Source: Patescibacteria group bacterium (GTDB lineage Bacteria > Patescibacteriota > UBA1384 > XYA2-FULL-43-10 > 1-14-0-10-43-13). Taken from it: 64,000 bases of DNA. The notes under the pieces were generated by a model. That model did not search any database and was not told where the DNA came from. It saw nothing but the letters and a program-made list of their open reading frames with translations. Below are positions 1-64,000 of the stretch, in pieces; within the stretch, counting starts at the first letter, position 1; each line of letters opens with the position of its first letter. Both the position numbers and the translations under genes were made by a program. The DNA lies in the NCBI GenBank assembly GCA_041666325.1, contig JBAYHC010000003.1, forward strand, positions 159,102-223,101, read 5' to 3'.

Positions 1-79
1 CCAAGCCCAAAAAAAGACGGCCAAAATTAAAACGCGATCTCACAATTTCCCTATTATTCTCTTTTTTTACTTCTGACAT
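1..79 (-). CDS. 5' part of a hypothetical protein that runs off the window start (N-terminus MSEVKKENNREIVRSRF...)
   Basis: ATG at 77-79 (minus strand) preceded by TAAGGAG 4 nt upstream. The frame stays open to position 1. Co-directional with the pspC-like gene just upstream. Confidence 0.35.
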   Translation of the reverse strand, partial: MSEVKKENNREIVRSRFNFGRLFLGL

Positions 80-104
80 ATTTCTCCTTAATGTGCGAAT
101 TCAT

Positions 105-569
105 CTATTTCCGCTTAAACACAATGTATCCGCCGAGTAGAATTAAAACTAGCGGCCAGAAAACGTCCCAATCAATACCGAATCTGGGTAATAACTGATT
201 AAGAAGGAGCAAAGTACCGGACAATATCAAGATTGCGCCAATAAAATCCCGAACGCTCGCCTGGTCCCACTCTTTCTTCCGTTTTCCATCCTGACCCTCG
301 CTTGTATCGGCGCCGGTATCGCGAACAGATTCTTGTGCCGCTTCCTTCTTGCCCATATTCTTATTGTCTGGCGCTTCGGGGATGATTATCATCAGTAATA
401 TATACAAGGCCACCCCGAAACCACCAAAAAAGGTAAAAACGAAAAACGCCACCCTGACAAGTACCGGATCAACATCAAAATATTCACCTATGCCGCCAGC
501 CACTCCAGCTACAACCCTGTTGTTCCGAGAAAGATAGATCTTCTTTGGCTCAATACTTCCTTCTGCCAT
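105..569 (-). CDS. PspC-domain membrane protein
   Basis: Segment IYLSRNNRVVAGVAGGIGEYFDVDPVLVRVAFFVFTFFGG matches the PspC domain and is followed by TM helices. The track ORF 105..908 extends its N-terminus through a compositionally foreign GC-rich block, so an internal ATG (567-569) was chosen as start; 602 or 641 are alternatives. Confidence 0.6.
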   Translation of the reverse strand: MAEGSIEPKKIYLSRNNRVVAGVAGGIGEYFDVDPVLVRVAFFVFTFFGGFGVALYILLMIIIPEAPDNKNMGKKEAAQESVRDTGADTSEGQDGKRKKEWDQASVRDFIGAILILSGTLLLLNQLLPRFGIDWDVFWPLVLILLGGYIVFKRK

Positions 570-729
570 AATATTCAACGCTCCATTAAATAATTGCACC
601 ATTATTATATCATAATTCAGCAAAAAACGCGGAAGAGTCATTGCAATCAGATCTCCCAAGACCCCGCTGTGGCCAAAAAAACGGGAGGGCCTGGCGGGGC
701 TCTCCCTGATAGAACAGAGCGGGTCGGCG

Positions 730-1035
730 TCAGCCGACCGGTTGTGCGGCGGGCGCCCCCCTTGGCACACCCAGCAAGTACCGGATCGCTCCTTCCGACC
801 CAAGCTGGGCATGGAGGCGATCGAACTCGCCCCGGACGATGTCGAGGTCGAAACCCTCCGGCAACCGGAGAGACTCGGCATTGCCCAAGGGCTTGCCGTC
901 ATCGTCAACCGGCACGACGCACATAATGAGAATAGACGCGTTAGCTACGCCAACTTCTCGTGCCAGCCTCCTTGCCAGCGCCAGGGCCACCTCGGGCACA
1001 GGCAGCGCCACAGGGGCGCCATTTGCTACACTCAT
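730..1035 (-). CDS. hypothetical 101-aa protein in a GC-rich island
   Basis: ATG at 1033-1035 (minus) with a perfect AGGAGGTG Shine-Dalgarno 5 nt upstream. Codon usage is GC-rich (GCG/GCC/CCG/CTC), unlike its neighbours. No family recognised. Confidence 0.45.
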   Translation of the reverse strand: MSVANGAPVALPVPEVALALARRLAREVGVANASILIMCVVPVDDDGKPLGNAESLRLPEGFDLDIVRGEFDRLHAQLGSEGAIRYLLGVPRGAPAAQPVG

Positions 1036-1467
1036 CGCTCACCTCCTGGGATCCGAACATATTTCCAGCACTATACCATACAAATCCACCCGGCTCAACA
1101 ACCCGTTGACTAGCGCAACATCGAGAACTAGAATAATCAGAGACAAGCAAAGAGAGGAGAACTGATCGCCTCAAGAAACGATAATAACACGACCACAGTT
1201 ATTGCGGAGGTCGCTCTCCGCGTTGCCGATGTCGGCGGTTGGACAGACACATGGTTTGCCAAACACGGTTATGTCTGTAACCTAGCCCTGACGTGTCGGC
1301 TCTTTGGCAACAATGCTCCTTATCGCGGAGTTTCGGTAATCGTCCAGACAAGCAATCATCAGACCCCCGCTGGTACTGTCTCAATTAAGGCAGCCGATCC
1401 GCATTTTGACGTTGTTGCGTCAATCAAGTCGCTCAGAAGCGGTAATTTTGACAAGCACAACCTCCTA

Positions 1468-2256
1468 TTGGCGACATTGTCACTGCTCGAGCTGAAACCT
1501 CTCCTGAACCACGATGTCGAAATCTATATTACCAGTCCTGTTCCGCCCGGCGCATCGATGGGAACAAGCGCAACCGTCTCTGTCGCACTAATCAAAGCAG
1601 TGGGCTCACTTCTAACCAAAGAAGGCATTAGGGCACTTGCTCCAGCCGAAGAGGCCCTTCTTGCCCACAGAGCAGAGACCGAGGTGATGAGAGGAGAATC
1701 AGGTACGCAAGATCAATGGTCGGCTGCGTTTTCACATGGAGCACAATTTATCACCATATCACCATTCCCTCAGACCGAATTAGAACAAATCAATCTGTCG
1801 CCGAAGACTGTCCATCAACTTGAGAGTGGTCTCATAACCATATTCGTCGGCAGCCACAACAGTTCACATGTCCATACAACTGTGATAAAAAAACTGACAA
1901 ACAAAAAAGGAGATTCACCCTTACTCGAACGACTGCGGCAATTAGCGATTGATGCCAAAGACACACTCTCGAAAGGCAAATTGCAAGACTACGGCCGAAT
2001 CCTGAGCGCAAATACAGAAACACAGAGAAGCCTCCATCTTGACCTTGTCGGCCCAGACCACCTAAAAATCCTTCGCCTTGCCCATACTCTACCCGGATAT
2101 CTGGGTGGCAAAGTCAATGGCGCCGGAGGTGGAGGCGGTTCCGTAACATTGTTATTCGAGTCAAAAGCAGCTGCTACTAGGTTCTTTCATCTTGCAAACG
2201 AGACACACAAGAAAGAGGAATACCTTTATTATGAGCATAAGATTGCCGGCGCCTAG
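1468..2256 (+). CDS. GHMP-family sugar kinase (HddA/heptose-7-P-kinase-like); true N-terminus probably starts upstream at about 1165-1201
   Basis: GHMP motif 2 PPGASMGTSATVSVALIKA and motif 3 GGKVNGAGGGGGSV are present. The in-frame upstream segment encodes the N-terminal RVADVGGWTDTWF (GGxTD) motif, but no ATG/GTG/TTG precedes it. Confidence 0.7.
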   Translation: MATLSLLELKPLLNHDVEIYITSPVPPGASMGTSATVSVALIKAVGSLLTKEGIRALAPAEEALLAHRAETEVMRGESGTQDQWSAAFSHGAQFITISPFPQTELEQINLSPKTVHQLESGLITIFVGSHNSSHVHTTVIKKLTNKKGDSPLLERLRQLAIDAKDTLSKGKLQDYGRILSANTETQRSLHLDLVGPDHLKILRLAHTLPGYLGGKVNGAGGGGGSVTLLFESKAAATRFFHLANETHKKEEYLYYEHKIAGA

Positions 2257-2307
2257 CACTTACCCCAACCTCACAGCTAAAAGCAGTGCCAATTTAGGAA
2301 AATCACA

Positions 2308-2940
2308 CTACGGCACCTGTTGCAAAAGACTCACAACATCATCATCGCTAACAGGAAAAAACTCCTCGTAATAGCTCCTTGCCACGCCAGAAAATTCAAA
2401 TGGTACGTTGAGAACAACCAGGTCATCAACCTCGTCCCAGATACTCGTCACAAGCTCCTCTGGAATAACCGGCAATGCTGCGACGATTTGTCGCGGATTC
2501 TTGTGGCGAAGCTCCTCGATAGCAAGCAAAAGAGCGGTATCACCCGCATTGCCATCGTCAACTAAAATTGCAATTTTGCCACTAATTTCAGGGACTTGCT
2601 TGTATTTCTTGAGATAAGTTTGGCGCTGACGTTGAGCTTCCAGCTGCTCTACCTCCATCCTGTCCCGCAGCCATTCCTGATTTAAATATGCGATTTCATC
2701 CTGGTCGCATAGTCCATGGCCATCCTCAGCGATCGCACAGACCGCAAGATCAGGGTTTTGGGGGTGGCTAATTTTTCGGGTTATAATGATATCCAGGGGT
2801 GCTTTTAAATGTTTAGCAACATAATATCCAAGTACGACTCCGCCCTTTGGCAACGCATAGACGACCACATCATCTAGCCTGTATTCCTCCAGTGCTTCTG
2901 CCAACTGCTGACCCGCATCCATCCGATCACGAAAGCGCAT
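2308..2940 (-). CDS. predicted phosphoribosyltransferase (COG1926-like PRTase)
   Basis: PRPP-binding loop ILVDDGNAGDTAL. Overall resemblance to the predicted-phosphoribosyltransferase family. Confidence 0.65.
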   Translation of the reverse strand: MRFRDRMDAGQQLAEALEEYRLDDVVVYALPKGGVVLGYYVAKHLKAPLDIIITRKISHPQNPDLAVCAIAEDGHGLCDQDEIAYLNQEWLRDRMEVEQLEAQRQRQTYLKKYKQVPEISGKIAILVDDGNAGDTALLLAIEELRHKNPRQIVAALPVIPEELVTSIWDEVDDLVVLNVPFEFSGVARSYYEEFFPVSDDDVVSLLQQVP

Positions 2941-3242
2941 TGTGCCTCCTTACGTTTACTCACCATGAGCTAGGCACTTTTTGAAACAAACTTGCGTCGT
3001 TCTTAATTTTTCAACTTCGTTTCCGACCAATCATCGGTCATTTTTTGCATCTCAGGCCCACTCATGGCCATTCATTATATCACACGAACAAATAAGCAAA
3101 TAAGTTAGCAAGTGTTAGGCTTGTGCCCAAGACAGTAAGACAAACTGTTTACCTAATTTTGAATAGCTCAGGCAAACATATGCTTATTTGTTGTCAAATC
3201 TATGATATACTTTTATTAAATTGAAATTACAGGAGGAGGAAT

Positions 3243-3608
3243 ATGCCTAAATGGATTGACGAGATTGATCCGGAAAGTTTGATAGATAAAGACATTTTTG
3301 AACTCCTAGACCTCAAAGACGCCCCGGAGGATCGCAAGCATCAAATCCTAGAAGACATGATGGAAACCATTCAAAACCGTGTGGTGGCCAGAATTTTGGA
3401 TTCACTCAAAAAAGAAGAGGTTAAGGAATTTGAAGAACTGCTCGACGAGGACGACAACGATAAGGTCGCTCAATTTCTTCAGACAAGAAACATCGACCCT
3501 GTTACATTCACAGCCGAAGAAGCCCTAAATTATAAAATTGAAATTCTCAACCTCATTGCGGCTCAAGAAGATGCGAGCGATGCCGACAATCAAGCTCAGG
3601 ACAGGTAA
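3243..3608 (+). CDS. small acidic helical protein, module 1 partner; paralog of 5837..6160
   Basis: AGGAGGAGG RBS before the ATG. 121 aa, rich in D/E. Shares the LL(D/E)LxDxPE(D/E)RK...IQ(N/T)RV(V/T)ARI(L/F)D(S/E)L...NID...N(Y/F)K(I/A)E(I/L)L(N/S)L(I/L) pattern with ORF 5837..6160. Confidence 0.7.
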   Translation: MPKWIDEIDPESLIDKDIFELLDLKDAPEDRKHQILEDMMETIQNRVVARILDSLKKEEVKEFEELLDEDDNDKVAQFLQTRNIDPVTFTAEEALNYKIEILNLIAAQEDASDADNQAQDR

Positions 3609-3618
3609 GGGAGACAAA

Positions 3619-5685
3619 ATGTTTTTTGGAAAAAAACCGTCCGCACCAGAAGCTGCCCCGTCGCCGCCAGCTCCATCTGCTTCTGAAGAAAAACCTAAAA
3701 AAGCTCCGACCGAGAACAAGAATGCCAGCTCTCCGGAGGGAAGCCCCAAGCCCCCAGTCAAGCAAGAAGGTAAAAAAGAACCTGCTACAGAAAAGGAAAA
3801 TGAAGCTGAAAAAAAAGAAAAACGGCTTGCCTCACTGGCCGAGATTTCTGCTGAACTCGACAAACGCCAAAAAGAACGCGACGAAGCGCTCTATGGCAAT
3901 TTCCTGCCACCAAAAGTTGGTAAGTTCCTGCACGGTACCGCCGCCGGAAAATTGATCAAATCAATTGCCGCTATTGCCGCTGGCGCAACCGTCGCTACCG
4001 CCGCCACATCTATCGGCGGACTAGCCCTCCTGGCAATCGCTCCTGTACTGCACACTCAGGGCATCCGCCTTGCCGCCAGCGGCGGAATTGAAGTCATTCA
4101 GACTCTCGCCGACCTAATGCAAGGCAAAAACAGCAACCTCTACGCCGAGATGAACGCTGCTAGCGCCGATCTAGAAAAGAGCAAAGTCAAACTCGCGGAA
4201 TTAGAATTGGGCAAAGACAAAGCCGACCCCGAAGTACACCAAGCACAGTTGGCGGAAACGATCAAAGCTATCGCCGAAAAAGAAAAAACTATCATTGAAA
4301 AACATTCCAAACTTCTCACACTCGACAATAAACGAAAAATCTTTCGCAGAAAGGGCTCTTCTCTTGTAACGGCCGCATTCAGTATTCTGCATGGCGTCGC
4401 CCTTGGCACCCAAGACTTCGACAACGGTATAGTTAAATCAACCAACCTTTCTAGCCCCGACCACAAGATGGTCTGGTCCCTCTTCAAGGATAACAAATGG
4501 AATAATTTTGATTTTCTATACAACCCTTCCGACTCTGCCGGCGCTGCCATGGCAAGCGCCAAACATACTTACGACATGGCCGGACCGCTCGATTTCGGAA
4601 TTAGCGGGCAAGGACACATCGTCGGCCAGATGTCCAACTCGCACCTCATTCCAAGCTATTTTGGTTTAGCTACGGCGGCACTAGGCCTTTCCTTGGGCGC
4701 AAGATCAAATGAACAGCAAAAACCCGATTACACTCCCCCATCTTTTGCGACAGATGATACAGCGCGAAGAGCGGAACCAGAGAGCAAGGAAGCCAGAGAC
4801 ATAACGATCGAAAGCAGTGCATCCGTACGAGAAGGAGATCTAAAAAAGAAGCTGGGGGATCTCGCAAAAGAAAAAGAGGAAAACAAGAAAAAACTTCAAA
4901 AACTTGGCGAGGAAATTAAGGCTGCAGAAAAATCTCCGCAAACCCATGATAGCGACCGGCAGCTTCAAGCAAAAAGAAAAGAAAAAGAAAAACTGGAAAT
5001 ACGCCAGAAAGAAATCGACACCGAACTGAAGAAATATGAAAAAGTCATAGAGATTCAGAAAAAAATTGAGGCAAAGGACCAGGAGATAAAGAAAAACCAG
5101 AATGAGTGGAACGATTTGGACAGAGAAGATGGGGATAATCCTGACATAGCAGTAGAGAAAAAGGCACATGAAGACAAAGATACCGAGCTCCGAAACGAAC
5201 GAAAAGCGCTGGAGGCTGAACTTGAGGAGGAGCTGAGAAAGATAAGCAGCAAGAGTAGCAAACCGAAACCGGAGGCGGCCACCGAAACAAGCGCAGAAAA
5301 AGAAACCCCAAAGAAGCCTGATAGCGCTCCAGCCAAAAAGGCCGAAGACAAAGCGCAGGACGAAGAAGAAGAGGAGGAAGAGGAAGATGAGGAGAATCCG
5401 GAGACAGCAAGGCTCAGAAGGGTTCGCAATAATTTTACCAAACTCGCCAGGGATGAATCTCTTACTCCATCCAGTCTCTCAGACACGACCGTTCTAAGGA
5501 ACAAATTGGAGGTAGCAAAGAGTGGACCAATTGAGCGGGCTGTTCTAACCGCCAGTTACAACGAAGCCTACACTACACTTCATAAAGTTAAATTTACCGA
5601 TCACTCCCGCCAAAAAGAGTTGGTCAGGCATATCAAATCAGGCTTTATTTCTATTTTGGAAGAGATTGGCCCGGAAAAGAGTTGA
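3619..5685 (+). CDS. giant coiled-coil protein A (688 aa) with A/G-rich hydrophobic hairpin segments; paralog of 6203..9901
   Basis: ATG at 3619 with a GGGAG RBS; the track ORF 3538 start is an N-terminal over-extension in the same frame. Features: hydrophobic stretch AAIAAGATVATAATSIGGLALLAIAPVL, a second SLVTAAFSILHGVALG and a third GLATAALGLSLGA; long K/E-rich coiled coils; a poly-E run; and a C-terminal domain ARLRRVRNNFTKLARD...YNEAYTTL homologous to protein B. Confidence 0.75.
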   Translation: MFFGKKPSAPEAAPSPPAPSASEEKPKKAPTENKNASSPEGSPKPPVKQEGKKEPATEKENEAEKKEKRLASLAEISAELDKRQKERDEALYGNFLPPKVGKFLHGTAAGKLIKSIAAIAAGATVATAATSIGGLALLAIAPVLHTQGIRLAASGGIEVIQTLADLMQGKNSNLYAEMNAASADLEKSKVKLAELELGKDKADPEVHQAQLAETIKAIAEKEKTIIEKHSKLLTLDNKRKIFRRKGSSLVTAAFSILHGVALGTQDFDNGIVKSTNLSSPDHKMVWSLFKDNKWNNFDFLYNPSDSAGAAMASAKHTYDMAGPLDFGISGQGHIVGQMSNSHLIPSYFGLATAALGLSLGARSNEQQKPDYTPPSFATDDTARRAEPESKEARDITIESSASVREGDLKKKLGDLAKEKEENKKKLQKLGEEIKAAEKSPQTHDSDRQLQAKRKEKEKLEIRQKEIDTELKKYEKVIEIQKKIEAKDQEIKKNQNEWNDLDREDGDNPDIAVEKKAHEDKDTELRNERKALEAELEEELRKISSKSSKPKPEAATETSAEKETPKKPDSAPAKKAEDKAQDEEEEEEEEDEENPETARLRRVRNNFTKLARDESLTPSSLSDTTVLRNKLEVAKSGPIERAVLTASYNEAYTTLHKVKFTDHSRQKELVRHIKSGFISILEEIGPEKS

Positions 5686-5836
5686 TTTCAGGTTCTCCCG
5701 AAGGAGTGATTTAGGTAAAACGCACAAAGAGACACAAACTTGTCAAATCACACCAGGGATAGCCTGGTACTTCGCATAATCCAGAGTCGGTGGTGCTGCA
5801 TTCTCAGGCAAACAACCTTAAGACCAAAGGAGCAAT

Positions 5837-6160
5837 ATGCCCGCACAAAAGGAAATCGATATCACAGAGATCGCCGAAAAGAGTCTATTGGAAGTTCTGG
5901 GGCTACAAGATCTACCGCAGGAAAAACGCTCACCAATTATCGCTAACATGGTAAAAATCATTCAAACTAGAGTTACTGCCCGTATCTTTGACGAATTAGA
6001 TGATAACGGCCTTAAACAGTTTTCCGATTCAGACACTAACCCCAAAAAAACCCGAGCATTTCTCGAAAGTAAGGGCATCGATCTGGACAAGATAACCAGC
6101 GATGAAGTCGTCAATTTCAAAGCAGAACTACTATCTCTTCTTGGCTATAATGTTAAGTAA
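5837..6160 (+). CDS. small acidic helical protein, module 2 partner; paralog of 3243..3608
   Basis: AAGGAG RBS. 107 aa. Same motif pattern as 3243..3608. Confidence 0.7.
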   Translation: MPAQKEIDITEIAEKSLLEVLGLQDLPQEKRSPIIANMVKIIQTRVTARIFDELDDNGLKQFSDSDTNPKKTRAFLESKGIDLDKITSDEVVNFKAELLSLLGYNVK

Positions 6161-6202
6161 AAATTATTTTATTATGCACCAAAGAAAAACAGCGGAGGAA
6201 TT

Positions 6203-9200
6203 ATGACACCAGTGGGCGAAGCAGGCGGGCCAATGGATCCATCAATCATCGGCGATCCTTCTTATACCGTTAATCCGGACAATCAAACCTCTTCCCCCGG
6301 AAAAACAGTCGAGGTTACTGCTGATGCCAGCAAAAAAACAGAAGCTAACACTGATGCGGAAATTACAGCTCCAGTCGTAGAAAAAAGGAAAACACCGGAA
6401 AGATTACGCACAGAAAGACTTGGCATTGCCGGAGAACTCAGCAAAACAATAAAAGAAAGAGAGAATCGGCGCAGCGAAGAACACTGGGGCAAGGGACGTT
6501 GGGGTAAGTTTAAAGAGAAACTCAACACAACAGATTGGGGTAAAGCAATCAAAGTGGCCGGAAAAGTAGCCCTCGCCACAACCGGAGTGCTGGCAGCCTC
6601 AACCCTCAGTGGTGGTGCAGGATTATTGCTTGCTCCCCTTCTCTACAGCCAATCGCTCAAACTCGGCTTCGAGGGTGGCCTTGAAGGGATGCAGCATCTT
6701 CTTCGTGGCCGAAAGGAACGTCTCGGCCTCGAGGCCAAAAAACAAGACTTTCTAAAGAAATCGGACGAAAGAATCGCAAAAGTTCAGGCAGCCGAAAATG
6801 AGTTTAGAATTGCCAAAGGCAAAAAGGACAGAGGCGAAATCAACAACGAAGAATACCAAAAAGCTGTTGACCAATACTCATCCCAAGTCGAAAGTCTGAC
6901 TAAATCAATCAGCCGTCTCGAAAGCGACTACCTCAAAAAAGAGCGCGAATACATCAATCTCGAAAACAGCATGAAAATTCAGCGCGCTACAGAGAGCACT
7001 GCCCTTTCAGCCACATTTTCGCTCTTGATGGGCATGCCTCTCGGTGTTCAGGGTGCTGGTCACAACGTTATCTTCGCTCCTGGCCATGGCCTTCACTTCA
7101 TTTATAAAGTTGGCGAAACGATGAGCAGCACAGGAGTTCATGCAATTGGCACATCACTCACGCACACAGTCGGCGCAATCGCAACTGCTGCAAGCGCTAG
7201 TCGCGCCTATCTCGGTATGGGACTCGCTGGAGCCGGGCTATTAGCAACTGCAGGTAAAGAGATATTGAATGCGAAGAAAAACCATCAGGCAGACAAACAA
7301 GAGCGCGGCACCTCTCTCTGGGCCGAAGTTTCCAACGACTTGAAGGCTGTTGGGAAAAAAGAAACAGTCGGCCAACGAGAAGCGGAAGCGATGGCACAAG
7401 AGGGTTCAGCCGAAACCTATGAGCCGCCAGAAAATCTGAAAAAATTCGCCAAGAAAACAGCCGAACACTACAAAGAGATTGGTCGGCGTACGAATGAAAT
7501 TGATGCCGAGATGAGCTCACTTGACGAAGAAGAGCAAAGGCTAAAAACTGATCCGACCCCGACGGATCAGTCACGGATGCGGCTTGAGGCTATTCCCGCT
7601 CAACGCGAAAAGCTAAACAATGAAAAAGAAGAGCTTGCCCGAGAAACAGAGAAAATCAAAGAAACAGCTGAGCTGTACAACCTAACGGTAAATATCGCCG
7701 GCCGAATTACACAGAGAAAAAATGAGTTGAATCAGTTAGCCAGAGACTTATCCAGCCCCGCAACAATCCCCCTGATAGAGAAGGCCAAAGCAGAATTAGC
7801 CGATCTTTATAGCCTGAGAAAAGAAACGTGGCAAAAAATTGCAGAGAAGCAAAGACTGATCGACGAAGAAGCAGCCAGCGCTGCCGCGAGTCAGACATCG
7901 GAACAACCGGCACAACAGGAAAGCTCTCCGGCTCCCAGCGAAGCTGATTTTCGCAAGTTTTATCGAGAGAATGCAGCCGGTTTTGCCGAGCGAGAAAAAG
8001 CACGAGCGACCGGACAGGAACCATCAGAAGAATATGCCACTTTCGATAATATTTATCGAGAAATCGACAGAGCTGAAAATGAAATGCGCCAGAAGGAAAG
8101 GGAAATCAATGAGCTGCAAAACAGAATAGATCGTGGTGAAGTAACGGCAACAAGCCAGGTCAGAGAACAACTATTCGGACTAACTCGCGAGTATCTTGAT
8201 GCTGATCGACGAAGAGACAACCAAAAGCAACTGCTTCGTGAAATTTATAATCAGGCAAAAGGCGCGAAATCGCCCCGGCAAACCCAAGCTACCCCAGAGA
8301 ATCGTACTGTAACAGGAGACCAACCGCCCATTCTCGATAATGCCAGATCTGAAGGCAATAAGACTAGCCCTGAGCTTCCTAAATTCGAGAGTATCGATCC
8401 GGCGCAAATCATCAGAGCGGCCAGGGATCCCGGGGTACGTGCTCGGGTCATAAGCCGTCTTAACGGCGCTAACAGCGCCGAAAGTTTTGGCAGCCTGGAT
8501 GGCGTTACAGCTCTCGAAGAGGCAGTTATTCTGGATGAATTGACCAATCGCGCCAGAGCATTGATGGAAGATCCTCGCCTGAGTAATGCCACACCAGAAG
8601 CAGCATATGACACAGTTGTGTTGATGCTCGATCAGCCTGAGGTCGAAGAGGAAGTCGGGAAAGAGCAAACGACTACAGCAGAAGAAGTGCCGGGAGGACA
8701 GGAAAAGACACCGCAACCGGAAGAAGCAGAAACAGCCGAGGCAGCGCGCATGGACTTTGTAAAGCGAGCATTTACTGACATTCTTAGTGACACCTCCTAT
8801 GCCCCGGAGCGCATAAACGATGTCGATGAACTAAGGCTTCTCTTCGGCGACCCTCTAGAGCGCGGCAGGATGCAATCCAGAAAGTTTTATTATGAAGCTT
8901 ATCGTCAAGCCACGGTAACCCTGGTCACAACTCCAACACGCGATATTAGCCGTTACTCAGCAATCCTTCGTAACCTGGATGAGGGTTATCGCAAATTGTT
9001 AGCAAGAGTCGAATCAGACGATCGCGATGGTGGTTCGGGATCAGAAAAATCCCCAGACGAGAAAGATGCAGAACAAGGGAAACCACTAGAGCAAGGAGAA
9101 ACAGCAGAACCAAACGCCGAGATTAAACAAAAATTCGAAGAGCAACTCCAGAAAGACAAGCGCATCATTGCCGAGTCAACAGAAAGAGCAAAGGGATTTG

Positions 9201-9901
9201 AGAAATACAAGAACAGACTTGCTGGATTCTGCGAAACGTCGGTAGCCGAGATTACAAGAGAAAGTGCCAATATCAAAGATGAGCCAAGAAGGAAAGCAGC
9301 AGAGCTTCAGGCAAAGATGATCAGTCGTATCCCCGACTCAGTCGGAACAAAAAAGTTTCTTAGTTTGATGGATCAGGTGTCATCGCCCGCAGAACTAAAA
9401 CCCCTGGACAATGATCAGATTATCGCAATGGAACCCGGGCAAGCCAAGCAATATGCTGACCGAATCAGTGGTCAAAACCATGACATTGTAAGAAAATATC
9501 AGGAATTACCAACAAACATTACCAAGAGCTTAACTGGCACCATTGGACCGCTCAAGACCCTGGCAGAGGTTGCCTCGAGCATGCATGACAGCGCCAAAAA
9601 ATCCGAGGGCGATGACCTCGAGGTTATGGGCAGAATCGCAAAGACCTTCGAGGACAGTCTTGGGTCAAACTTTGATATTCAAAGGATAAAGGTCGAACCA
9701 AACCAGACTCCAAACTACGAAAAAATCGAACCTTTTGACATTGCCACCACTGATGACCCGACTAAAAACGAAACAGTAGAGAGCATTGTCTCAGAGGGCT
9801 ATATGTTTAACTCTGAGCTGGCCGGAGTACCTGGTGGCACCATTATCAAGCCCGCCCAAGCGGTCATCTATAAATACCAAGAAGCACCAGCGAGAGCATA
9901 G
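6203..9901 (+). CDS. giant coiled-coil protein B (1232 aa) with A/G-rich hydrophobic hairpin segments; paralog of 3619..5685
   Basis: GGAGG RBS. Hydrophobic stretches VAGKVALATTGVLAASTLSGGAGLLLAPLLY, SATFSLLMGMPLGVQGAG and VGAIATAASASRAYLGMGLAGAGLLATAG. Extensive charged coiled coil. C-terminal domain ARMDFVKRAFTDIL...YYEAYRQATVTL homologous to protein A. Confidence 0.75.
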   Translation: MTPVGEAGGPMDPSIIGDPSYTVNPDNQTSSPGKTVEVTADASKKTEANTDAEITAPVVEKRKTPERLRTERLGIAGELSKTIKERENRRSEEHWGKGRWGKFKEKLNTTDWGKAIKVAGKVALATTGVLAASTLSGGAGLLLAPLLYSQSLKLGFEGGLEGMQHLLRGRKERLGLEAKKQDFLKKSDERIAKVQAAENEFRIAKGKKDRGEINNEEYQKAVDQYSSQVESLTKSISRLESDYLKKEREYINLENSMKIQRATESTALSATFSLLMGMPLGVQGAGHNVIFAPGHGLHFIYKVGETMSSTGVHAIGTSLTHTVGAIATAASASRAYLGMGLAGAGLLATAGKEILNAKKNHQADKQERGTSLWAEVSNDLKAVGKKETVGQREAEAMAQEGSAETYEPPENLKKFAKKTAEHYKEIGRRTNEIDAEMSSLDEEEQRLKTDPTPTDQSRMRLEAIPAQREKLNNEKEELARETEKIKETAELYNLTVNIAGRITQRKNELNQLARDLSSPATIPLIEKAKAELADLYSLRKETWQKIAEKQRLIDEEAASAAASQTSEQPAQQESSPAPSEADFRKFYRENAAGFAEREKARATGQEPSEEYATFDNIYREIDRAENEMRQKEREINELQNRIDRGEVTATSQVREQLFGLTREYLDADRRRDNQKQLLREIYNQAKGAKSPRQTQATPENRTVTGDQPPILDNARSEGNKTSPELPKFESIDPAQIIRAARDPGVRARVISRLNGANSAESFGSLDGVTALEEAVILDELTNRARALMEDPRLSNATPEAAYDTVVLMLDQPEVEEEVGKEQTTTAEEVPGGQEKTPQPEEAETAEAARMDFVKRAFTDILSDTSYAPERINDVDELRLLFGDPLERGRMQSRKFYYEAYRQATVTLVTTPTRDISRYSAILRNLDEGYRKLLARVESDDRDGGSGSEKSPDEKDAEQGKPLEQGETAEPNAEIKQKFEEQLQKDKRIIAESTERAKGFEKYKNRLAGFCETSVAEITRESANIKDEPRRKAAELQAKMISRIPDSVGTKKFLSLMDQVSSPAELKPLDNDQIIAMEPGQAKQYADRISGQNHDIVRKYQELPTNITKSLTGTIGPLKTLAEVASSMHDSAKKSEGDDLEVMGRIAKTFEDSLGSNFDIQRIKVEPNQTPNYEKIEPFDIATTDDPTKNETVESIVSEGYMFNSELAGVPGGTIIKPAQAVIYKYQEAPARA

Positions 9902-9913
9902 CAAGACTTAACA

Positions 9914-9940
9914 AAAAATCAGGAATTTCCTGATTTTTTG
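9914..9940 (+). terminator. rho-independent terminator after giant gene B
   Basis: Hairpin AAATCAGGAATTTCCTGATTT followed by a T-run. Confidence 0.6.
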
Positions 9941-10026
9941 GTTTATGGGTAGCTGCATCTCTTTAGCACGGATTATCATCACCACACAGTAGGACACCGC
10001 CCCTGTAGATTTAGGCTATCCGGGTA

Positions 10027-10956
10027 TTAGGCAGTGGCTGTAACCAGCGCCACCCTTTTAGATTTAATAAAGAAAAACCCAACTATTGTGAATGTCAGGG
10101 CCGGCGAGAGCCAGTTTGGTATGTGAAATCCGAAGCTATCAAGCAACATGATAACGCCCAAGAAAAGGATTGAGTACATAGCACCATTTTTCAAGTAAAC
10201 ATACTTCTTGATCCGCTCAATGTTACCCAAAGTAAGCTGGCGAACAACGATTGCACCAAGACCGTTTCCTATCAGGATGAGTGGAACAGACAGCGTGAAG
10301 GCAAATGCGCCCAAGACTCCATCAATCGAGAAGGTGGCATCGATTACTTCAAGGTAAAGAATCTTACTCATATCAGACAGACTGCTACTTTTGTTAAGAA
10401 GCTGCTCCTCCCCCGCTTCGGCATTCTGCTTAAAACCGTGAGTGATAAAAAAGGCTGTTGAACCCACGACTGCTCCGAACGCCATCATCGGATCACTCTG
10501 TAGTGCGTACCAAACAATACAAGCCAAGAGAACTGAGGCAACAGCATAAAACCAAATACCCCTTGAAAAGAAAAACTTCTCATGAGGCAAGCCGAAGTTC
10601 TTCGTCTCCAAAAAAAGCCAATGGAAAAACAGAAAGATTAAGAATGTTCCTCCACCAACCAAAAGAACTGGAGCTGACTTTTCGACTGCTTCCGCTACAC
10701 TTGGATCATTAGAGAAAGCGGCAGTGATAGCACCAACCGGGCCAAGCGAAGGTGTCGTAACCCAAATAATAAGCCAGGGCAAGAGTCCACGAACTAAGAA
10801 AACGGCAAAAATCATGCCCCACAGCAAGAACCAACGTCGCCCTTTTTTGCTCATCGTTCCAAGAACTTCAGCATTGATAATAGCATTGTCAATACTTGAG
10901 ATAGTCTCAAACAAACAAAGCCCGCCAATGATTACAATTGCTGACATTAAACTCAT
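10027..10956 (-). CDS. TerC/DUF475-family integral membrane protein
   Basis: Motifs ETISSIDNAII and ATFSIDGVLGAFAFT (twin TerC-like DN/D motifs), multi-TM. ATG at 10954-10956 with a GGGAGG RBS 4 nt upstream; the track ORF uses a GTG 12 nt further up. Confidence 0.7.
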   Translation of the reverse strand: MSLMSAIVIIGGLCLFETISSIDNAIINAEVLGTMSKKGRRWFLLWGMIFAVFLVRGLLPWLIIWVTTPSLGPVGAITAAFSNDPSVAEAVEKSAPVLLVGGGTFLIFLFFHWLFLETKNFGLPHEKFFFSRGIWFYAVASVLLACIVWYALQSDPMMAFGAVVGSTAFFITHGFKQNAEAGEEQLLNKSSSLSDMSKILYLEVIDATFSIDGVLGAFAFTLSVPLILIGNGLGAIVVRQLTLGNIERIKKYVYLKNGAMYSILFLGVIMLLDSFGFHIPNWLSPALTFTIVGFFFIKSKRVALVTATA

Positions 10957-11071
10957 CTGACCTCCCACAAAATTAAGTTACCTTGAAGCAGTTATTTCCT
11001 TGCTATTCGCTGACGCTTGCCGCAAACAAAAAGAGGGAAAACGCATTACTACTTTCCATATTATAACAAAT

Positions 11072-11300: not shown

Positions 11301-11378
11301 TGGTCGGGGAGAGAGGATTCGAACCTCCGATCTCAGGACCCCCAGCCCTGCGCATTAACCAGACTATGCTACTCCCCG
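11301..11378 (-). tRNA. tRNA-Pro (anticodon GGG) with encoded CCA
   Basis: Manual fold: acceptor CGGGGAG/CTCCCCG, D-stem GCAT/ATGC, anticodon stem CAGGG/TCCTG with loop CUGGGGG, T-arm GGAGG-TTCGAAT-CCTCT, discriminator A plus CCA. Confidence 0.8.
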
Positions 11379-45206: not shown

Positions 45207-45324
<118 letters not shown>

Positions 45325-45539
45325 CAAAACCATTTTATCAATACTGAATAGTAAATATCTTTTCCAGATGAGGTGCCCCGACATTGGAGCACCGATATCT
45401 GAAAAAGCTGAGCTAGATCTCAAGCGACAGCCAAGCCCCACATACCCGACAAAGTCAGGTATCGAGGTAAAGCCACCGCTAAGTATCATATGCGCTCAAA
45501 AGAATAGGATAAATCCAAGAATTGCTCGTCAAAAATTGA

Positions 45540-48462
<2,923 letters not shown>

Positions 48463-48483
48463 ATATTCTCTAGAGGTCAACGC

Positions 48484-63429: not shown

Positions 63430-64000
63430 AAAAGATTACCCGCGGTTTAAAGCTATCCCTATTCAGGTCAGCGTTCTATCCGGGCCACTTCTACTCGCCA
63501 CTACCAAGCCTTTCAGAAATTAAGCGGGCAAACATGTTTTTTGATCGCGGCAAACAACTTATTCGCGGAATTTCATTTAACGAAAAAGCCCAGATTAAGC
63601 TCCTGAAAGACCTGAAGAAATACTCCCTTGACTGCCCTTTTCCCGACACCAAAAAGAAAAACTTTCGCTATTTTTTCCTCAATGACTCTTATTCTTTCAG
63701 TGACGGCAATGTCCTCTACTCGATGATTAGACACTTGACCCCAAAGCGAATCATTGAGGTGGGATCAGGATATTCTACCTGTTTAATTCTAGACACGAAC
63801 GATCTTTATTACAACAATCGAATGAAGTGCAAGTTTATTGAACCGTATCCCAAAAAAGTATTCTCACTCATTCATGAGGAAGATAGAAAAAGAGTTATAA
63901 CCAAGCCCACCCAGAAGGTAGATCTTTCTCTTTTCAAGCAACTGGAAAACAACGATATCCTATTTATTGACTCGAGTCACGTCTCAAAGTTTAATAGCGA
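63430..64000 (+). CDS. class I SAM-dependent methyltransferase, 3'-truncated by the window end
   Basis: GHFYSPLPS motif and EVGSGYST (motif I-like). The open frame runs to position 64000. Confidence 0.55.

Follow-up and report, generated by a model that had tools for sequence, protein, structure and literature searches.

Near one end of the window, as we call the whole 64,000-nucleotide stretch of Patescibacteria contig JBAYHC010000003.1 that was analyzed, lies a block of several hundred base pairs (bp) that is considerably richer in G+C than the DNA on either side. Such a sharp break raises the question of whether the block was inserted from another organism, was misjoined during assembly, or belongs to the genome in which it is found. 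An earlier note on this DNA described a GC-rich island at about positions 660-1060 with a complete open reading frame (ORF) for 101 amino acids (aa), and proposed either a recent insertion from a high-GC organism, for example one of the Actinobacteria, or an assembly chimera. Our analysis points elsewhere. The island is probably a native single-gene unit encoding a 101-aa orphan protein, kept by vertical inheritance, whose high G+C at third codon positions (GC3) would be maintained by selection.

The GC-rich island and its transcription unit

The maximum-scoring GC segment of the entire window spans positions 655-1020 and has a G+C content of 0.661, compared with a window mean of 0.449. Values in 100-bp windows over 651-1050 range from 0.58 to 0.68, those immediately before the island from 0.34 to 0.49, and the value immediately after it is 0.44. 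The top 400-bp window begins at position 656 (0.65 G+C, z = 5.4), and the runner-up anywhere in the 64 kb reaches 0.552. The flanking genes, which Pfam identifies as encoding a PspC-domain protein and a GHMP kinase, are lower in GC than the island (0.46 and 0.49, respectively). The excess is likewise evident in the codons of the ORF at 730-1035, for which G+C at codon positions 1, 2 and 3 is 0.755, 0.48 and 0.696, as against host gene means of 0.50, 0.38 and 0.46. Sliding-window and segment scoring thus bear out the earlier description of the island, of its low-GC flanks, and of an ORF with high-GC codon usage (GC3 of ~0.70 against 0.46 in the host) that begins 4 nucleotides (nt) from a Shine-Dalgarno (SD) sequence, AGGAGGTG. 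The tetranucleotide comparison that had also been suggested gave a divided answer: the raw distance places the island first among 637 windows (z = 5.9), but once base composition is corrected for, the signal is gone (z = 0.8, rank 123 of 637, in a test for which 366 bp is short). Because the corrected score is ordinary, the anomaly lies in base composition, and no foreign oligonucleotide signature accompanies it.

The second-highest GC peak of the window, at 3877-4277 (peak 3968-4167), attains 0.61 over 200 bp and 0.67 in one 100-bp window. It sits in a 716-aa ORF (3538-5685) whose G+C at fourfold-degenerate sites (GC4) is 0.52, above the host mean.

The island is bounded by a candidate -10 promoter box (1070-1078) and by the area just past the T-run of a candidate terminator (675-681), and is essentially coextensive with the predicted transcript of ~390 nt. 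The elements of this unit are given below, with their counterparts in L082, a contig from dataset SRR22387853 that carries a diverged relative of the gene.

655..1020, no strand: GC-rich island, the maximum-scoring GC segment, 66.1% G+C.
1093..1098, minus strand: putative -35 box of the small gene, TTGAGC, from a promoter scan; TTGA is kept in L082 (TTGAAA).
1070..1078, minus strand: putative extended -10 box, TGGTATAGT; 9 of 9 bases are identical in L082.
1040..1047, minus strand: Shine-Dalgarno sequence, 4 nt before the ATG; AGGAGG and the start context AGCGATGAG are kept in L082.
730..1035, minus strand: 306-nt coding sequence of the 101-aa orphan protein, with ATG at 1035 and TGA at 732..730; P0005 is its 46%-identical ortholog.
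722..739, minus strand: perfect hairpin of 7 bp, GGTCGGC-TGAC-GCCGACC, whose loop contains the TGA stop codon, from an inverted-repeat scan and the sequence; the stop context CCGGTCGGCTGA is kept in L082.
675..706, minus strand: putative intrinsic terminator, with stem-loop GGGAGAGCC-CCGCCA-GGCCCTCCC (706..683), one G, and a run of seven T residues, T7 (681..675).

Taken together, these elements would make the island a single complete minus-strand transcription unit with an extended -10 promoter, a strong SD sequence, a 306-nt coding sequence and an intrinsic terminator. The promoter scan yields TTGAGC, a 17-nt spacer and TATAGT with TG upstream, and the spacer DNA surrounding the conserved extended -10 box is otherwise just ~50-60% identical between the window and L082. 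The same divergent spacer of 130 bp also carries the conserved back-to-back promoter of the GHMP-kinase gene. The terminator has a predicted folding energy of -14.5 kcal/mol and is left unlisted by a simple terminator scan because of an internal mismatch. L082 shares the motif ATCAGGGAGAG and has, at the equivalent place, a different stem interior, a UUCG loop and a T7 run. It is this conservation in L082 that suggests function for both promoter and terminator. The hairpin over the stop codon may simply reflect GC-richness; by eye, a hairpin in another register is also possible over the stop codon of L082, at ~920-945.

The JGI annotation gives the small gene a length of 93 aa, with its start at position 1011. 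This start appears to be too late, because the SD sequence, the ATG at 1035 and an N-terminus (MS..GA.P) common to the ortholog all support the 101-aa form, which is also the form recorded in P0006. The gene is conserved and probably well expressed.

Coding status and integrity of the assembly

The length of the ORF is by itself no evidence of a gene, since 56% of shuffled versions of the island contain 101 or more consecutive codons free of stops, and the island is open in several frames. What decides the matter is comparison with other sequences. Among 5.8 billion protein clusters, a word-indexed search returned the protein itself as the sole match. When 1.84 billion representatives, standing for ~15 billion proteins, were scanned exhaustively with HMMER, one true relative emerged, the 93-aa protein P0005, which is 46% identical over its full length and is co-linear from residue 1 to a shared C-terminal PVG-stop. 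Its gene lies beside a GHMP-kinase gene on L082, where the order is as in the window: divergent GHMP kinase, spacer, small gene and terminator. No paralog of the small gene was found elsewhere in the 64-kb window. The family is known from two sequence variants only, both in one narrow lineage of Patescibacteria (candidate phyla radiation, CPR).

In the same scan, giant cadherin/Ig-repeat proteins (P0002-P0004) produced HMMER E values of 1e-10 to 1e-19. These were rejected as relatives, the scores being weak matches to a short motif of the query (I-x-V-x-P-V-x-D-x-x-P-x-G-N) summed over 8-9 tandem repeats. The case illustrates that repeat-summed scores can mimic homology.

Alignment of the small gene with its ortholog reveals the pattern expected of a protein-coding sequence. 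In the annotated frame, 52% amino acid identity accompanies 53% nucleotide identity, and the other frames reach 21-25%. Differences at codon positions 1, 2 and 3 number 30, 40 and 61, codons differ at 29 of the 47 identical residues, and the indels, one of eight codons (the sole large one) and two of a single codon, are all multiples of three. By the method of Nei and Gojobori (NG86), the proportion of synonymous differences (pS) is 0.777, which is saturated, and that of nonsynonymous differences (pN) is 0.363. Constraint is concentrated in residues 1-39 (pN 0.32) and 67-101 (pN 0.25), with an unconstrained linker at residues 40-66 (pN 0.65). Because substitutions are frame-specific, synonymous turnover is extensive and indels preserve the reading frame, this is a real gene and not a chance ORF; on the pairwise comparison, ORF 730-1035 is a protein-coding gene under purifying selection. 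Competing frames were considered and rejected: the plus-strand ORFs at 594-926, 742-1113 and 839-1165 are unconserved, with 21-25% identity or stops in L082, and the 42% identity of the mirror antisense frame, which has four stops in L082, is a mere shadow of the sense frame.

A structured noncoding RNA gene with an accidental ORF, such as RNase P RNA, transfer-messenger RNA (tmRNA) or a novel small RNA, could account for some of the same features. The unit has a suitable size of ~390 nt and its own promoter and terminator, such genes commonly form GC-rich islands in lower-GC genomes, and the 23S ribosomal RNA (rRNA) gene of the window is also among its higher-GC regions. Long ORFs arise readily by chance in this composition, as the shuffles demonstrate, and the sense strand folds more strongly than shuffled sequences (z = -2.8). 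However, the resemblance to rRNA, RNase P RNA and tmRNA genes ends with this ~400-nt GC-rich block and its signals. Rfam gives no match at gathering thresholds (the best permissive hit, with E = 0.39, is to an unrelated viral element), and ARAGORN finds no tmRNA. The structure conservation index of 0.30, against 0.36 ± 0.045 for alignments with shuffled columns, gives no sign of conserved structure, in a comparison of two sequences with low power. The substitution pattern is that of a protein, being frame-specific and mostly synonymous, with an indel of eight codons. Noncoding RNA as the sole function of the island is strongly disfavored, and we regard it as very improbable.

The protein is ~10.4 kDa and acidic (isoelectric point 5.0), with no transmembrane segment and one conserved Cys residue, and it is predicted to be soluble and mostly helical. 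An AlphaFold2 model built from the two-sequence alignment is of low confidence (predicted local distance difference test score, pLDDT, of 60.5) and places helices at residues 13-28, 30-38, 64-78 and 80-88. Foldseek comparison of this low-confidence model with the PDB gave a best match of E = 2.7 and no fold match. Searches of Pfam (E <= 1), NCBIfam, PHROGs, PADLOC and the PDB (sequence and profile) likewise found no relative. An internal duplication of two helix-Gly-helix blocks was considered and discarded, as BLASTP gave no alignment.

A misjoin, in which a fragment from a high-GC organism was assembled into a low-GC contig, has the sharp compositional break as the sole point in its favor. 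The island and both of its junctions are present with 0 mismatches in contigs from three other datasets (L001, L083 and L084). The identical overlaps comprise 2,593 bp of a 79.5-kb JGI contig (3300037810), 11,035 bp of a 30-kb Logan contig (SRR6484324) and 1,618 bp of a 3.2-kb Logan contig (SRR18595301), and none of the three terminates at the island. These are separate read sets put together by different assemblers, in at least two pipelines, and may derive from one and the same population. The 101-aa protein has been recorded from a 687-kb contig as well. In addition, the candidate regulatory signals run conserved across both junctions, and a fourth dataset, SRR22387853, holds the ortholog at the same position in a diverged relative. 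The earlier note had proposed that finding the island in related genomes would argue against a chimera; that search was run, and the gene is present, and GC-rich, at the same position in L082. Assembly chimerism is thus effectively refuted, and we give it almost no probability at all.

The agreement with the three datasets extends over window positions 1-11035, with 0 mismatches in up to 11 kb, and the same strain has evidently been sampled repeatedly. The sample behind IMG 3300037810 is from a groundwater well at a landfill in Southern Ontario.

Descent of the gene and the source of its GC excess

If the gene had been acquired recently, its divergence from L082 would not be expected to match that of its neighbor. 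The two genes prove to be equally diverged at synonymous sites. Conserved residues are encoded by different codons in 60.4% of cases for the small gene and 58.5% for the GHMP kinase, fourfold-site identity is 0.367 and 0.377, and pS is 0.78 and 0.75. The kinase itself is 69% identical to the L082 fragment in amino acids and ~70% in nucleotides. The simplest reading of this equality is co-descent since the lineages split, such that the small gene would be native, already located beside the GHMP kinase in the ancestor shared by the window organism and L082, and would have diverged together with its neighbor. Vertical inheritance is what we infer from this comparison.

The marks of integration were also sought. 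At the island borders there is no transfer RNA (tRNA) or tmRNA gene according to ARAGORN (the nearest tRNA is at 11301), nor are there terminal or flanking repeats or mobility genes such as an integrase or transposase. The exhaustive HMMER scan recovered, apart from the rejected repeat proteins, only the protein itself and P0005. No homolog was found in phages, plasmids or IMG/VR viral contigs, and none in any high-GC or other organism in the HMMER scan. Scans of genome and metagenome contigs and a protein search, in which the kinase neighbor was used to locate further orthologs, returned only kinase relatives at <=50% identity. The closest of these, one of them annotated as Patescibacteria, have 48-50% identity; gene order is lost and the small gene is lacking. 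Synteny is lost in all five kinase-relative loci that were inspected, and a homolog of the small gene occurs in 0 of 172 loci. Since these distant relatives have no synteny with the window, they are uninformative about an empty insertion site. The sole relative with the same neighborhood, L082, carries the small gene at the same site, so that no patchy distribution is seen.

Horizontally acquired genomic islets resemble this locus in their sharp compositional break, atypical codons and self-contained expression unit. They differ in that no integrase, transposase, tRNA target, flanking repeat or donor homolog is present here, and in that the gene occupies an orthologous site in its sole known relative and has diverged along with its neighbor. 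The direction of the bias also differs, as the excess here is towards GC. Acquired DNA is usually AT-rich. A recent horizontal insertion is not supported by these comparisons, and the earlier suggestion of a high-GC donor fails on divergence equal to that of the neighbor, conserved signals, missing mobility marks and the lack of a donor homolog.

What remains to be explained is the excess of G+C. Ala, Gly, Pro, Arg and Val are abundant in the protein, whereas Lys, Thr, Asn and Ile are scarce. The amino acids of the protein, combined with host codon usage, predict a G+C content of 0.562, compared with 0.647 observed. Amino acid composition thus explains about half of the excess, and G/C-ending codons account for about half. 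The GC3 of ~0.70 compares with an expectation of 0.459 (z = 5), and 101-codon stretches taken from 40 host genes never rise above a GC3 of 0.614. GC4 is 0.708 in the small gene, 0.431 ± 0.057 in the host and 0.449 in the adjacent GHMP kinase. Because this neighbor is host-like, the break is sharp and specific to the small gene.

Two observations bear on the cause of this bias. First, synonymous sites are saturated, and a neutral remnant of an old transfer should therefore have decayed. Second, the preference for GC-ending codons has outlasted that saturation, which favors selection on the gene or its messenger RNA (mRNA) over the leftover of a recent transfer. Under neutral decay modeled according to Felsenstein (F81), with per-lineage values of 0.35-0.40, the implied ancestral GC4 would be ~1.1-1.2, which is impossible, although the estimate comes from small samples of 30 and 69 sites, whose upper confidence limits take in an ancestral value near 0.9. 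Most likely, the GC3 excess is held by selection of some kind, acting on the gene or its mRNA, and this is the least secure step of the proposal.

An ancient transfer, in which a cassette from a very GC-rich donor arrived shortly before the lineages split and has since been partly ameliorated, would accommodate an amino acid composition and codon usage that are both foreign to the host, a GC4 of 0.71 in a host at 0.43, and a unit that brings its own promoter and terminator. Conversely, neither the 1.84 billion representatives nor phages, plasmids and viral contigs contain a homolog, the point estimates of decay need an ancestral GC4 above 1, tetranucleotides corrected for GC show no foreign signature, and there are no integration scars. 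We consider such a transfer improbable.

Recent allele replacement poses a serious rival to selection. The copy in the window would have been swapped by recombination with that of a GC-richer relative from the same Patescibacteria clade, in which the GC-rich version might be normal; the clade would own the gene natively, with only the present allele foreign to this genome in composition. The confinement of the break to the small gene, next to a GHMP kinase with a GC4 of 0.449, agrees with this, as do GC-corrected tetranucleotides that are host-like, which is what a related donor should leave. However, synonymous and fourfold divergence from L082 equals that of the GHMP neighbor, as in vertical descent. 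The window copy (GC4 0.71) is moreover GC-richer than that of the sole known relative (0.62), no GC-richer donor lineage is known, and the identical allele appears in the three other datasets with no variant seen. Replacement is thus an unlikely explanation, if one that deserves to be taken seriously.

Two further possibilities can be set beside these. The unit might be a small cassette that passes between Patescibacteria through homologous replacement. Alternatively, a high G+C content might itself be the target of selection, held near 0.65 regardless of host GC (0.45 in one lineage and ~0.54 in the other), with a role for the DNA or mRNA beyond coding. Even counted jointly, the two are doubtful. 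If the second were true, the island could be a stable transcript, a dual-function RNA, or a physical or insulating element between the kinase promoter and the envelope-stress genes that lie downstream of the small gene.

Several points weigh against a native gene under selection for GC3. There are just two family variants, and all evolutionary inference comes from one pairwise comparison of 92 codons and 30 fourfold sites. The upper confidence limit of these small samples permits an ancestral GC4 of ~0.9, a point that also favors an ancient transfer. The L082 small gene has a GC4 of 0.617, close to the 0.594 of its own neighbor, such that the GC-rich version may be normal at home; the composition of the L082 host is known from a single 528-nt gene fragment. 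No specific selective agent was found among those tried, namely RNA structure, folding and translational selection. Folding of the single sequence is only moderately stronger than that of shuffles (z = -2.8 for the sense strand and -2.4 for the antisense strand), and indicates no clear agent. Finally, the role of the protein is a guess, because the structure model is weak (pLDDT 60.5) and finds no fold match.

Translational selection was rejected as a cause of the high GC3 because the top genes of the window reach just 0.54 and no set of GC-ending optimal codons is evident. The identified window genes of highest GC3 encode a PucR-type regulator, a class II aminoacyl-tRNA synthetase and a penicillin-binding protein, which are not obviously highly expressed.

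Nonetheless, a native, vertically inherited unit whose GC3 is maintained by selection seems to us the likely reading of this locus. Apart from its unusual composition, the small gene is an orphan gene of an ordinary kind. Like other orphan (ORFan) small-protein genes it is short, at 101 aa, has no family relatives beyond one narrow lineage, and is under purifying selection, as are many species-specific orphans (PMC11293555). It differs in composition. Large surveys find a nearly one-to-one match between orphans and their hosts in GC and GC3, and lower GC in orphans of phage or de novo origin (PMC11293555); orphans have also been described as AT-richer (PMC3514957). The small gene, in contrast, lies 20 points above host GC and 24 above host GC3.

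Neighboring genes and a possible role

The genes and signals on either side of the unit are as follows.

105..569, minus strand: PspC-domain gene, downstream of the small gene and outside the island (Pfam PspC, E = 1.6e-23, residues 9-66 of the 154-aa version).
1106..1134, plus strand: putative promoter of the divergent GHMP-kinase gene, TTGACT, a 17-nt spacer and TAGAAT, with 10 of 12 matches; GTCAACG and the -10 box (TAGAAT/TAAAAT) are kept in L082.
1165..2256, plus strand: divergent GHMP-kinase gene, the synteny anchor with L082 (Pfam GHMP_kinases_N, E = 1.4e-9), with a host-typical GC4 of 0.449.

Gene callers differ on the length of the PspC protein, which is given as 154, 178 or 221 aa. 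Its true start is likely the ATG at 569, where JGI places it at the ATG at 641. An extended -10-like sequence, TGATATAAT, at 612..604 on the minus strand, is a candidate promoter in the AT-rich stretch between the terminator of the small gene and pspC; if it is used, the start must be the ATG at 569 and not that at 641. A second, weak hairpin followed by a T-run is located at ~668..615 on the minus strand (folding z = -0.3). The longer frame 105..908 (267 aa) is artificially extended, as had been remarked from the sequence. The PspC domain begins at residue 9 when counted from ATG 569, and the extension passes over the terminator and into the 3' end of the small gene in an unconserved frame (21-25% identity, with 2-7 stops in the ortholog).

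The GHMP-kinase gene presents a different annotation problem. On the plus strand, positions 1132-1468 contain no ATG, GTG or TTG that would serve the conserved N-terminal 100 residues, which include a WTDTWFAK motif common to homologs. After the SD sequence GAGAGGAG (1152-1159), the options for a start are just CTG at 1162 and ATC at 1165; L082 has GTG/ATG there. For want of a canonical start, gene callers shorten the protein to 262 aa from the TTG at 1468. The gene probably uses a noncanonical start codon.

Downstream of the small gene and in the same orientation are genes for the PspC-domain protein, a LiaF-TM/Toastrack protein, an ArsR-like protein (by sequence reading), glutaredoxin and thioredoxin reductase. 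Another neighbor is a phosphoribosyltransferase gene (Pribosyltran domain). Modules of PspC with LiaI-LiaF-TM and Toastrack proteins that lack pspA usually occur together with small transcription factors or adaptors, including PadR-like winged helix-turn-helix proteins with HAAS, ribbon-helix-helix (RHH) proteins and SHOCT-like proteins (PMC11237479). The small gene resembles these in lying directly upstream of, and co-oriented with, the PspC and LiaF-TM plus Toastrack genes and in encoding a small, predicted helical protein. It differs in having its own terminator before pspC and in that the association is seen in one genome. The protein matches no known regulator of the helix-turn-helix, RHH, PadR or SHOCT type in Pfam (E <= 1), and NCBIfam and a PDB profile search gave no match either. 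Because the gene adjoins PspC and Toastrack genes, and pspA-free modules usually come with small regulators or adaptors, we tentatively suggest that the protein might be a small cytoplasmic regulator or adaptor tied to the adjacent PspC/LiaI-LiaF-TM-Toastrack envelope-stress genes or to the divergent kinase, an assignment that is well short of likely. This suggestion is qualified by the separate terminator and by the single genome in which the gene is seen next to such a phage-shock-type (PSP) module, the L082 contig ending 87 bp past the small gene, short of the downstream gene.

Other features of the window were recorded. At ~3,200-9,900 (1135-7793 of L083) are genes for two very large proteins of 1,232 and 688 aa that have no Pfam domain, each preceded by a gene for a small DUF5663 protein (107 and 121 aa) in a repeated gene pair. 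An rRNA cluster on the minus strand (45207-48465) consists of a full-length 23S gene (2,925 nt, with no insertions) and a 5S gene. There is no 16S rRNA gene in the window, including the 15.5 kb upstream of the 23S gene (to position 64000), and no tRNA gene in or near the cluster. The rRNA genes appear to be unlinked.

With this analysis, the suspicion of a misassembly or foreign insertion in this Patescibacteria genome is lifted, and three gene calls are corrected: the small gene would encode 101 and not 93 aa, the PspC gene is over-extended in some annotations, and the GHMP kinase has been truncated for want of a canonical start codon. A two-member orphan family is thereby added beside an envelope-stress module, in an episymbiont-type lineage whose small proteins are mostly uncharacterized. 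Its unusual feature is an excess of GC and GC3 that seems to have outlived saturated synonymous turnover, whereas orphans normally follow the composition of their host. With two sequences this is a hypothesis; if further orthologs bear it out, the gene would offer a compact natural case of gene-specific selection on base composition.

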